A stretch of DNA of 32,682 bases from positions 1 to 32,682 of IMG/VR virus record IMGVR_UViG_2974514734_000001; one strand, written 5' to 3'. This stretch comes from a virus. Lineage: Duplodnaviria; Heunggongvirae; Uroviricota; Caudoviricetes; Ackermannviridae. A model generated the notes under the pieces. That model made no database searches, was not told where the DNA came from, and was given only the letters and a program-made list of their open reading frames with translations. The position numbers and the translations under genes are program-made. Shown piece by piece: positions 1 through 1,017 of the stretch; position 1 is the stretch's first letter; every line of letters begins with the position of its first letter.

Positions 1-167
1 CACACCCTCCCGCCTATTTTTAGTGCGCCGAATTTGGTGATGAGGAATCGGAAGACCTCACTGGTGTATGGCTGTTAAGCTACTGCCAGGAACGTGTTAT
101 CATTAGCGATTATTTTTGTGGTCAGTTTCTAAAAACCCGCAAAGTCACACACAACGAAAACGAAAAC

Positions 168-232
168 CTGTTTGAGTCCTAAACCTACCTGTCTTGGTCT
201 CACATCGCTATGAGTGGCCAGGACTCAAACAG
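168..232 (-). ncRNA. Putative structured RNA: perfect 13-bp stem enclosing an inner hairpin
   Basis: CTGTTTGAGTCCT (168-180) and AGGACTCAAACAG (220-232) are exact reverse complements. An inner CTCA/TGAG stem is present. It lies ~20 nt downstream of the - strand promoter-like motif at 252-277. Confidence 0.45.
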
Positions 233-251
233 CTTGCCGTTCAGTGAGTTA

Positions 252-277
252 ACTATACTTTGTAACCCGTTATTGAT
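252..277 (-). promoter_or_regulatory. Promoter-like motif ATCAAT-N14-TATAGT
   Basis: Near match to the TTCAAT-N14-TATAAT motif at 1624-1649, with the same 14-nt spacing. Confidence 0.6.
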
Positions 278-294
278 AAAACCTTTTATTTTGT

Positions 295-361
295 TGGCGA
301 GGGTGTGGAATCGAACCACACTTCTGAGCGCTACCCCGTGTCACCAATGCACCACCTCACC
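295..361 (-). ncRNA. tRNA-like RNA / pseudo-tRNA with truncated anticodon arm
   Basis: The - strand reads GGTGAGG-TG-GTGCATTGGTGACAC-GGGGTAGCGCTC-AGAA-GTGTGG-TTCGATT-CCACAC-CCTCGCC-A. It has a 7-bp acceptor stem, a D arm with GG and a canonical TTCGATT T loop. The anticodon arm is only ~11-12 nt and there is no encoded CCA. Confidence 0.7.
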
Positions 362-369
362 ATCGATTT

Positions 370-465
370 GCCGGAACTTACGCATCCGGCCTCGTCCTGT
401 CGGTGTTCTTCTGAATCCGGGAAGATCAGCAGGAACCATGAATCAAGTTAATTCAACCAACAGGA
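370..465 (-). ncRNA. Putative structured RNA (multi-branch junction plus GNRA-capped hairpin)
   Basis: On the - strand TCCTGTTGGT (456-465) pairs with ACCGACAGGA (395-404) over 10 bp with one G-U, enclosing two hairpins. It is followed by GCCGGA...GC-GTAA-GT...TCCGGC (370-390). Confidence 0.5.
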
Positions 466-484
466 ACCTTGTTGCCCTTTGACG

Positions 485-521
485 CAACATTATGAACCCT
501 CTATGAAGACTCATAATGTTG
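485..521 (-). other. Long hairpin (11-bp perfect inverted repeat, extended by G-U pairs on the - strand)
   Basis: CAACATTATGA (485-495) and TCATAATGTTG (511-521). The interior continues pairing through G-U pairs only on the - strand. Confidence 0.6.
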
Positions 522-523
522 TC

Positions 524-613
524 GGCGTGATGGAGATTAGCGCCCCCGACCTCCCCTTATATGTTGGTGTCAACTTGCCGACGGGGTGCTCTCTGATTCT
601 GAGCTAATCACGC
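524..613 (-). ncRNA. tRNA-Ile-like RNA with an expanded anticodon loop and non-canonical T loop
   Basis: The - strand reads GCGTGAT-TA-GCTC-AGAATCAGA-GAGC-A-CCCC-[26 nt]-GGGG-AGGTC-GGGGG-CGCTAAT-CTCC-ATCACGC-C. Acceptor and D stems are perfect. The GCACCCC...ATAAGGG.AGGTCGG context resembles enterobacterial tRNA-Ile. No encoded CCA. Confidence 0.7.
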
Positions 614-619
614 TACAAC

Positions 620-760
620 AGGGAGTTTCGTTCTCCGACGGTCAAGTGCGTCCACTGACACCAGCGAGGTGGATATTGACTTATGGAGCCGGAGTCCTCG
701 TCCTAGGACTGTGCTTGGCCTCAGCCTTTACACCGCTGGTCGCCCGACTCTTTACACCAT
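620..760 (-). ncRNA. Putative pseudoknotted RNA
   Basis: Nested stems CTCCGGC/GTCGGAG, GTCAA/TTGAC and TCCAC/GTGGA. The terminal loop contains CGCTGGT, complementary to ACCAGCG at 734-740. It begins just downstream of the promoter-like motif at 768-794. Confidence 0.55.
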
Positions 761-767
761 AAAATTT

Positions 768-794
768 ACTATACTACAGCCCAGCTAATTTGAA
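768..794 (-). promoter_or_regulatory. Promoter-like motif TTCAAA-N15-TATAGT
   Basis: Resembles TTCAAT-N14-TATAAT and shares its -10 hexamer with the motif at 252-277. Confidence 0.5.
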
Positions 795-813
795 AAGTCC
801 TCTCCCCTTTGAG

Positions 814-960
814 CTACACTGCCCACAGCAGTGCGGACGAACCTTCACTCAAAACCGGATGCGCCGAAGTGGGCAACTGTTTACCGGACTGATCGGGTAG
901 ACCCAGGAGAGAGCAGGTAATCCCGATCAGGAGGATGAGGAGTAACATCATGTAAAACAT
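814..960 (-). CDS. Small hydrophobic protein, 48 aa (MFYMMLLLILLIGITCSLLGLPDQSGKQLPTSAHPVLSEGSSALLWAV), not in the ORF track
   Basis: ATG at 960 and TAG at 816-814. GGAGG sits 7 nt upstream (972-968). The N-terminal ~21 residues are uncharged and hydrophobic. A TTCAAT motif lies at 1010-1005 upstream. Confidence 0.7.
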   Translation of the reverse strand: MFYMMLLLILLIGITCSLLGLPDQSGKQLPTSAHPVLSEGSSALLWAV

Positions 961-1017
961 AGTGTTCCCTCCCTTCCATGCAACTAACTTTACTACAATT
1001 ATTTATTGAATAAAGCG

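Follow-up and report, generated by a model that had tools for sequence, protein, structure and literature searches.

The first 1,010 positions of a 32,682-nucleotide (nt) stretch of phage DNA (hereafter the window, covering positions 1 to 32,682 of the Ackermannviridae record IMGVR_UViG_2974514734_000001) were found to contain, on the minus strand, an RNA gene that appears to encode a headless transfer-messenger RNA (tmRNA). Judged by its sequence, this RNA keeps the resume context of a tmRNA and a tag of the degradation type, with pseudoknots downstream, while an alanine-accepting tRNA-like domain appears to be missing. It is probably derived from a tmRNA and carries a translated tag, and an arm upstream of the tag is antisense to the host tmRNA gene, ssrA. 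Through this RNA the phage probably interferes with, or rewrites, the host tagging of unfinished proteins. Base 1 of the window is also base 1 of the 157,920-bp phage record, and the genome shares 99% identity with GG32, a Salmonella phage of the genus Kuttervirus (Ackermannviridae). The region 1-1010 appears to be divided into three minus-strand units, namely a membrane-protein gene, a structured transcript driven by a promoter named P2, and the tmRNA-like RNA driven by a promoter named P3. That the RNA genes among them are real and under selection is, in our assessment, very likely. All features described below lie on the minus strand, and coordinates are window positions unless another locus is named.

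The tag reading frame

The mRNA-like domain occupies positions 116-75 and consists of the context AAAAAUAAUC, a resume codon GCU at 107-105, a tag at 107-78, and a stop codon UAA at 77-75. The sequence of 107-75, GCU AAU GAU AAC ACG UUC CUG GCA GUA GCU UAA, specifies ANDNTFLAVA followed by a stop, which is near the E. coli tag ANDENYALAA. This frame had been left out of the elements listed for 1-1010 by an initial annotation made from the sequence. An A-U-A at -6 to -4 before the resume codon is retained in the various families as well as in E. coli ssrA. The interval from the upstream stop to the resume codon contained no in-frame ATG, GTG, or TTG in the present phage, MK54, wV8, or Cyrano-type sequences, and the sole near-start was one CTG in the present phage and MK54. 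The tag was hence rejected as an ordinary open reading frame (ORF), and the only translation route known to us for a frame that lacks a start codon is a resume of the tmRNA type. The +1 frame was likewise rejected as an ORF, as it reads MITRSWQ-stop here and MQTTMFFWQ-stop in wV8, which are unlike in both length and sequence.

Instances of the element were collected by an anchor in the downstream hairpin; as this is outside the tag, the tag sequence played no part in their selection. The frame of ten codons was intact in 172 of 172 independently anchored instances, which included 46 distinct upstream sequences; in one instance, a mutated stop adds a single residue. Among these instances, the last five tag codons demonstrated solely synonymous changes (CUG/CUA; GCA/GCU/GCC; GCC/GCU/GCG/GCA), and the stop codon alternated among UAA, UGA, and UAG. 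The tags of the present phage and wV8 differ by five synonymous changes and one replacement. An intact frame with synonymous-only variation is the signature of a translated frame. Over all instances, 17 tag variants were identified, of the form AN(D/E)xx(Y/F/V)L(AVA/MAA) followed by a stop. The class ending in LMAA included ANDSEVLMAA, ANDEKFLMAA, ANDDVVLMAA, and ANDNAFLMAA (loci L131, L132, L006, L007, and L009), and it was found in Aglimvirinae phages (CECAV_050 and CRW-SP2), Miltonvirus, Buchananvirus, and a Schitoviridae phage.

The sole Rfam signals in this region were weak hits of the tmRNA_permuted model (RF04321, 20.7 bits) and the beta_tmRNA model (RF01850, 14.4 bits) over window 27-225, and both models place their tag regions on 116-75. 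The one-piece tmRNA model RF00023 had no hit in the genome.

Complementarity of the upstream arm to host tmRNA

The antisense arm (167-130) contains the conserved blocks GUUUUCGU, G(U/C)GACU, and UUGCGGGUUUUUA, and it is antisense to nt 67-106 of ssrA. The E. coli gene (locus L130, positions 312-674, 363 nt) served as the host ssrA in all pairing tests. A blastn comparison aligned window positions ~154-123 in antisense with nt 68-104 of E. coli ssrA at 76% (37 nt), and the alignments of related phages reached 78% (41 nt) and 81% (27 nt). The predicted duplex between the arm of the present phage and ssrA had an energy of -48.5 kcal/mol (z -4.6), which was reached by none of 200 shuffles. Whole-arm energies that included promoter DNA had inflated the backgrounds, and the calculation was rerun with transcribed arms only. 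In each of 68 distinct arm/template pairs, the arm favoured host ssrA 60-125 over a stretch of equal length in the phage RNA itself, with mean duplex energies of -27.1 and -13.0 kcal/mol, respectively. When the entire ssrA was searched, 39 of the 43 distinct transcribed arms had their best site in one register, which starts at nt 67 or 85 and ends at nt 106.

The ssrA target spans the 3' side of pseudoknot 1 and the resume codon, and it extends up to codon 5. This stretch was nearly invariant in 30 Enterobacteriaceae ssrA genes taken from a family-wide RF00023 search. A conserved cis pseudoknot 1 was not found upstream of the phage resume codon; this stretch is instead taken up by the arm antisense to host ssrA, which forms only loose pairings when the phage RNA is folded by itself. 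In Kuttervirus, the GUUUUCG motif is tandemly duplicated (GGUUUUCGUUUUCG) at window 156-167, while Agtrevirus and Taipeivirus have GUUUUCGUUCUCG. From the duplex modelling, the phage RNA may well pair with host tmRNA, a prediction that we lean towards by a small degree.

Structure of the tmRNA-like RNA

The tmRNA-like RNA is headed by P3 (TTATCA-16-TATAGT, 279-252), from which transcription is expected to start near position 245. Its 5' hairpin (232-168), with a 13-bp stem, is specific to the Ackermannviridae and forms the strongest element of the single-sequence fold. Joint changes from U-A to C-G and from C-G to A-U were observed in this stem between Kuttervirus and Agtrevirus/Taipeivirus, and the 13-bp-stem RNA of the initial annotation was thus borne out by covariation.

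Downstream of the tag, covariation supported a hairpin at 61-40, a first pseudoknot between its loop CCGA (51-48) and UCGG (31-28), and stem S1 of a second pseudoknot between GCAC (26-23) and GUGU (5-2). The second stem of that pseudoknot, S2, pairs GGCGGGAG (14-7) with CUCCCGCC, the latter being past window position 1, at the record end. The structure was derived from the first row of an alignment of 70 distinct sequences and was compared with 500 shuffles and with slid controls. The hairpin and the two pseudoknots had 90.3% paired cells, as opposed to 78.9% in shuffles; changes on both sides were observed in 12 of 22 pairs, amounting to 125 cells against 36 in shuffles. The observed covariation score was reached by none of the 500 shuffles, and all slid controls scored far lower. 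The closing pair of the 61-40 hairpin was G-U in 58 of the 70 sequences, and one pair of S1 was G-U in 49 of them, in agreement with the earlier argument that G-U pairs point to the minus strand.

The 3' unit had been described as a 13-bp-stem RNA plus a separate CCA-ended hairpin at 60-35. Both stems do covary, but they belong to one RNA that also includes the tag template and the arm against ssrA. The hairpin itself was recovered at 61-40, whereas the CCA (~37-35) was not conserved: this position reads CAAUGAAU, CAAAGAAU, or CAACGAAU in relatives, and the trinucleotide is not a 3' terminus signal because it is inside a larger pseudoknotted RNA. A placement of the stop codon within a loop resembling that of helix 5 was also tried and rejected, as candidate pairings near the stop were inconsistent across families. 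After the tag RNA in siphoviruses and Taipeivirus, a repeated module CACAACAGGUAAG...CUUUCCGUUGUGG with swappable interiors was observed (L004:1290-1370, L010, L073, and L024), and L024 contains two copies of it.

Search for a tRNA-like domain

ARAGORN was run on the window, the whole genome, and 14 representative loci and called no tmRNA in any of them, and no SmpB gene was found in the phage. A custom search for a T arm and a 7-bp acceptor stem with G3:U70, from -400 to +700 nt relative to the tag, returned a tRNA-like element in just 9 of 176 instances, all of which were wV8-like. The compact promoter-to-terminator units of the 46-kb phages (L073 and L077) contained no tRNA-like domain.

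In wV8 (L003:1352-1435, minus strand) and eight other Felixounavirus loci, an unannotated tRNA-like RNA is present 120 nt past the tag. It has the acceptor CGGGGCG/CGCCUCG (G3:U70), a discriminator A, an encoded CCA, an anticodon-like loop CUUCUAA, and a long variable region, while a D arm is absent. By the acceptor-stem rule for G3:U70, it should accept alanine.

A 3' element of GG32, composed of a T arm and AAACGGC-U-CCA, was considered as the missing tRNA-like end through pairing with GCUGUUU at the 5' end of the RNA, and it was rejected. The element has its own 5' partner, GCCGUUA, with which it constitutes a self-contained tRNA-like unit of 122 nt with C3-G70; GCUGUUU is already engaged in the 13-bp stem; and the present genome does not contain the segment.

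Distribution among phages and prophages

The tag RNA is not confined to the Ackermannviridae but is in many unrelated enterobacterial phages and prophages. A sensitive blastn search with window 1-1010 matched 614 phage records, ~380 of which matched over window 22-161 only. The latter included Felixounavirus, Suspvirus, Buchananvirus, a Schitoviridae phage, 46-kb Klebsiella siphoviruses, and 108-kb Cyrano-like phages, and in Felixounavirus and Suspvirus the tag element was within the tRNA cluster. Of 5426 complete E. coli genomes, 143 also carried it; a single locus among them was examined, a lambdoid prophage in which the element was located between an antitermination-protein gene and a holin gene. 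Where flanks were read (wV8, SUSP1, MK54, and the present phage), a sigma-70-like promoter was found just upstream. The element was almost never annotated.

The upstream structured transcript

P2 (TTTTCA-17-TATAGT, 796-768) heads a second unit, which its sequence conservation suggests to be a structured transcript of ~430 nt that holds two tRNA look-alikes, B and A, both apparently non-decoding. Its 5' module (760-665) is variable in the alignment of relatives: it is shared with CECAV_050 only, and it was swapped for unrelated sequence in SeKF_64, CRW-SP2, P46FS4, and Taipeivirus. The pseudoknot RNA previously proposed at 760-620 was not supported, since its 5' half is replaced in close relatives and the proposed ACCAGCG-loop pairing is lost. 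The following segment (664-615), which contains two small hairpins (of the GUGG...CCAC type and GGAG...CUCC), was nearly invariant in Kuttervirus, Agtrevirus, and Taipeivirus.

The next elements of the initial annotation, which were tRNA-like B, a long hairpin, a junction RNA, and tRNA-like A, were all recovered. The tRNA-like B (613-524) includes a 7-bp acceptor stem, a D stem, and an extended 'anticodon' arm composed of CCCC/GGGG and an inner 5-bp hairpin, and its T region is non-canonical. Compensatory changes were observed in its acceptor stem (C-G to U-A), CCCC/GGGG stem, and inner hairpin, and its D loop contains an 18-nt insert in Taipeivirus. The long hairpin (521-485, ~19 pairs) was present in the consensus fold; it is almost invariant, and covariation therefore neither supports nor opposes its pairing. 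The 'junction' RNA (484-366) was highly conserved; its terminal hairpin is at 391-370, and CCUGUUGG/CCGACAGG constitute a long-range helix. The double changes in the long-range helix stem from two Taipeivirus rows and may reflect an alignment offset. Taken together, tRNA-like B, the 19-bp hairpin, and the 391-370 hairpin were conserved with some covariation among them.

The tRNA-like A (361-295) combines a D stem and a discriminator A with the acceptor GGUGAGG/CCUCGCC and a canonical T arm (GGUUCGAUUCC). A 4-bp stub replaces its anticodon arm, and it has neither an anticodon loop nor an encoded CCA. Seven pairs with compensatory changes were observed among just six sequences, and its 3:70 pair was U-G or C-G, never G-U. 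It was missing in Menlow and P46FS4 and mostly deleted in CECAV_050. The SeKF_64 annotation labels it as tRNA-Ala (L001:2794-2860), a name that is probably wrong because the element has no anticodon loop and no G3:U70. Neither A nor B was called by ARAGORN or the Rfam tRNA model (RF00005). The two look-alikes and the upstream hairpins are clearly under RNA-level selection. Most likely, A and B would act as folded RNA modules or as processing handles for RNase P/Z, while a role as protein-binding decoys is possible.

Promoters and the membrane-protein gene

A scan for sigma-70-like promoters returned four sites, as compared with 1.2 +/- 1.0 in shuffled sequence. Two of these, P2 and P3, correspond to promoters placed earlier at 794-768 and 277-252; they have the common form TT(A/T)TCA...TATAGT, and their blocks were conserved throughout the Ackermannviridae genera that were compared, which for P3 extends to LIMEstone1 and Serratia 3M. 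A third promoter had been placed at 1010-987, where the TTCAAT/TAAAGT pair has a 12-nt spacer; the scan selected TTAAAA-17-AATAAT at 1026-998 instead. The block 987-1026 was conserved across genera and is a possible promoter before the 48-residue ORF, although its hexamers are uncertain. The promoter-like sites (252-279, 768-796, and ~987-1013) have in common an extended motif (TTaTCAAtaa ... GTAtAGTTA), as would be expected if a single class of phage promoter served the island.

The 48-residue ORF (960-814) has a strong Shine-Dalgarno sequence, GGAAGGGAGGG, at 977-967 and encodes a small membrane protein. The prediction of a membrane peptide was thus correct, and the protein is already catalogued: it matched the full-length profile of phrog_8415 (residues 1-48 of 48, E 2.5e-33). 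In a Taipeivirus homologue with 50% identity, the hydrophobic helix at the N-terminus and two motifs, LLGxPD and AHxVLS, are retained, and the gene is annotated in several relatives.

The RNA island and its bounds

The stretch described here is the upstream third of an RNA island of ~2.5 kb in the Kuttervirus genome. It lies downstream of a 189-residue ORF (1587-1018, phrog_3788), and in the ~1 kb without a long ORF, which had been recognized as such in the initial annotation, the only supported ORF is the 48-residue one. The non-coding stretch runs over the record junction into the genome tail and ends at tRNA-Met, tRNA-Asn, and tRNA-Tyr (156,167-156,831). The junction is real, as a hairpin spans it and agrees with GG32 in a whole-genome check.

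The initial annotation had viewed this region as a one-strand array of promoter-driven structured RNAs and tRNA look-alikes beside a small membrane-protein gene, a view that conservation and covariation support. Two of the scans that it had suggested were run: ARAGORN found no tRNA in the window and Rfam nothing above threshold, and no RNA of the array was found in Rfam 15. Near-invariant non-coding blocks were observed between genera whose flanking protein is just 62-70% identical.

Between the genome end and window position 1, ~245 nt that are present in GG32 (L002:2255-2500) and SeKF_64 (L001) are missing from the present genome. This segment contains two further tRNA-like units, 65 nt and 122 nt in length, which are non-canonical and each have an encoded terminal CCA. 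CECAV_050, UPM2146, and Menlow retain differing parts of it, and the island is therefore modular. After the tmRNA-like RNA, a long-range stem AUCUnnGAGGGCA...UGCCCUCnnAGAU (record ~157,790-157,875, minus strand; L002:2120-2250) is retained in both the present genome and GG32, while its interior is wholly different between the two. In SeKF_64, Menlow, and CECAV_050, many short ORFs were annotated over the island.

Interpretation of the tmRNA-like RNA

Trans-translation is the main bacterial route of ribosome rescue, and it influences the growth of some phages. Reports of tmRNAs borne by phages have so far concerned complete copies in a few large phages. Our best reading of the tag RNA is a headless tmRNA that docks on host tmRNA, a proposal drawn from sequence comparison whose chances we consider even. 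The arm would dock on host tmRNA and cover the host tag template. The phage resume context, ~22 nt past the duplex, would then be brought beside the host tRNA-like domain and SmpB, and rescued ribosomes would add the phage tag in place of the host tag, or at minimum host tagging would be blocked. Replacement of the tag rather than a mere blockade is put forward tentatively; it explains both the arm and the selection on the coding frame, whereas simple inhibition explains the arm only. Equally speculative is the outcome that phage RNA and host tmRNA constitute a hybrid two-piece tmRNA, such that rescued proteins might receive ...LAVA or ...LMAA instead of the host degron.

Several points weigh against this reading. 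We know of no precedent for a ribosome that resumes on a template in trans with an intact one-piece tmRNA, and the host pseudoknot 1 must open for the arm to pair. The pairing was computed on E. coli ssrA for a phage of the Salmonella ViI type; in one Enterobacteriaceae ssrA (L314), GAAACU in place of the E. coli GAAAAC would introduce a bulge into the GUUUUCG pairing. The same L314 gene encodes the tag ANDETYAVAA. For the short arms of the Felix-O1 type and the CGUUUUCGGCGG type, the duplex energy was no better than in shuffles, and the argument for pairing comes from the common register and the invariant GUUUUCG. The Rfam scores are far below the gathering values of 47 (RF04321) and 84 (RF01850) bits. 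The structures downstream of the tag are candidate counterparts of helix 5 and pseudoknots 2-4, and no sequence similarity to E. coli ssrA was found there. Finally, the roles proposed for tRNA-likes A and B are conjectural, and A is dispensable, as it is absent from close relatives.

The foremost alternative, although an unlikely one, is a pure antisense inhibitor or sponge that only shuts down trans-translation, by pairing with host tmRNA or by titrating SmpB or S1, with the tag frame as untranslated mimicry or a relic. It would account for the complementarity of the arm equally well, and a partial tmRNA has precedent in the RNA of mycobacteriophage DS6A, which is little beyond a tRNA-like domain, a type of molecule reported to inhibit tmRNA strongly (PMC4131195). 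An untranslated frame, however, should not give synonymous-only variation, swappable stops, and a frame intact in every anchored instance across unrelated families.

With still lower probability, the tRNA look-alikes, and perhaps the whole array, would be decoys or substitutes against defences that target tRNAs, such as anticodon nucleases, PARIS, and retron effectors. The location of the elements within a phage tRNA cluster, the retention of a tRNA shape without a decoding loop, and the presence/absence polymorphism of tRNA-like A, which is typical of accessory counter-defence cargo, would fit this explanation. Yet without an anticodon loop an element does not offer what anticodon nucleases usually attack, a gene or motif related to defence was not found, and the tag frame and the arm against ssrA would be left unexplained. 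Of the counter-defence or translation-modulating module suggested in the initial annotation, the translation role was a good guess for the 3' unit, while the role against tRNA-targeting defences found no support here.

We consider it improbable that the tag RNA is half of a two-piece phage tmRNA, joined to a phage acceptor (tRNA-like A or a downstream unit) as in circularly permuted tmRNA. The order of a tRNA-like element first and the tag RNA second does recall permuted ssrA, the best Rfam hit was to a permuted model, and the wV8-type Felixounaviruses have the element with G3:U70, A73, and CCA after the tag. Against this, tRNA-like A holds both of its own acceptor strands, with U3:G70 or C3-G70, and Menlow and P46FS4 keep the tag RNA without it; a nearby G3:U70 element is restricted to the few wV8-like instances; and the T-arm element of GG32 has its own 5' partner with C3-G70 and is deleted in the present genome. 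Decay into functionless pseudogenes of tRNAs and a captured ssrA fragment, for which non-canonical folds, indels between close relatives, and sub-threshold Rfam scores could be cited, is very hard to reconcile with compensatory changes in many stems, near-invariant non-coding blocks between genera with diverged flanking protein, and a tag frame intact in hundreds of phages.

Relation to known RNAs

The phage RNA resembles the one-piece tmRNA (SsrA, RF00023, E. coli ssrA) in an Ala resume codon that follows an A-rich AUA context without a start codon, in a 10-residue tag that starts with AND and has a small hydrophobic end, and in a stop followed by a hairpin and pseudoknots. It differs in that a tRNA-like domain, a G3:U70 acceptor, a T arm, and a CCA are absent from its ends, an anti-host arm is in the place of pseudoknot 1, the tags end in LAVA or LMAA rather than ALAA, and it falls below ARAGORN detection and the Rfam gathering score. 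With the permuted two-piece tmRNAs (RF01849-RF01851 and RF04321), to which it has its best though weak Rfam match (RF04321), it has in common a separate coding RNA that needs base-paired joining to an acceptor. In those tmRNAs, however, both pieces are encoded by one organism and pair via the acceptor stem and helix 2, whereas the phage has no cognate acceptor piece and its complementarity is to the host tag region.

Phages with all or part of a trans-translation RNA include those with tmRNAs (mycobacteriophages Bxz1, Cali, and others; Bacillus phage G) and DS6A, whose RNA demonstrates that half of the molecule can occur alone and may be inhibitory to tmRNA. These RNAs are either complete or the tRNA-like half alone, while the present RNA is the opposite half plus an antisense arm. 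The exhaustive ssrA survey of Hudson and Williams (2014; PMC4131195) found none in enterobacterial phages; phage ssrA was reported just in mycobacteriophages and Bacillus phage G, with a tRNA-like-domain-only RNA in DS6A. No publication describing the tag element was found in the literature; searches for phage tmRNA-like or antisense RNAs returned ARAGORN citations and the 2014 survey.

A likeness to the stable RNAs C and D of T4, also called species 1 and 2 (L338:1409-1672), had been pointed out as well. It holds for the genomic context only, as these are small stable non-coding RNAs within a phage tRNA cluster, and rnaC ends in a T arm and an acceptor-like stem. They contain no tag frame, and sequence similarity was lacking: a blastn comparison of rnaC and rnaD with the 2.6-kb island returned only an 11-nt T-loop motif. 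Trans-acting antisense small RNAs of phages and prophages likewise have a promoter-proximal, seed-like arm complementary to a host RNA; in the present case, the target is a tmRNA rather than an mRNA, and the regulator bears its own translatable template.

Implications for phage biology

If the docking reading is true, the tag RNA would represent a trans-acting reprogramming of trans-translation common to hundreds of enterobacterial phages, and a new viral way to seize a host quality-control system. Lambdoid prophages and the ViI-like, Felix O1-like, and N4-like phages are well-studied groups, and yet an RNA with only the tag template and an arm directed at host tmRNA is unannotated in them. 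Some of the 'gene deserts' beside phage tRNA clusters would be accounted for by this RNA, and it offers a concrete feature for annotators. The tRNA look-alikes of the island raise the matter of selection for a tRNA shape without decoding, a question that dates from T4 RNAs C and D.

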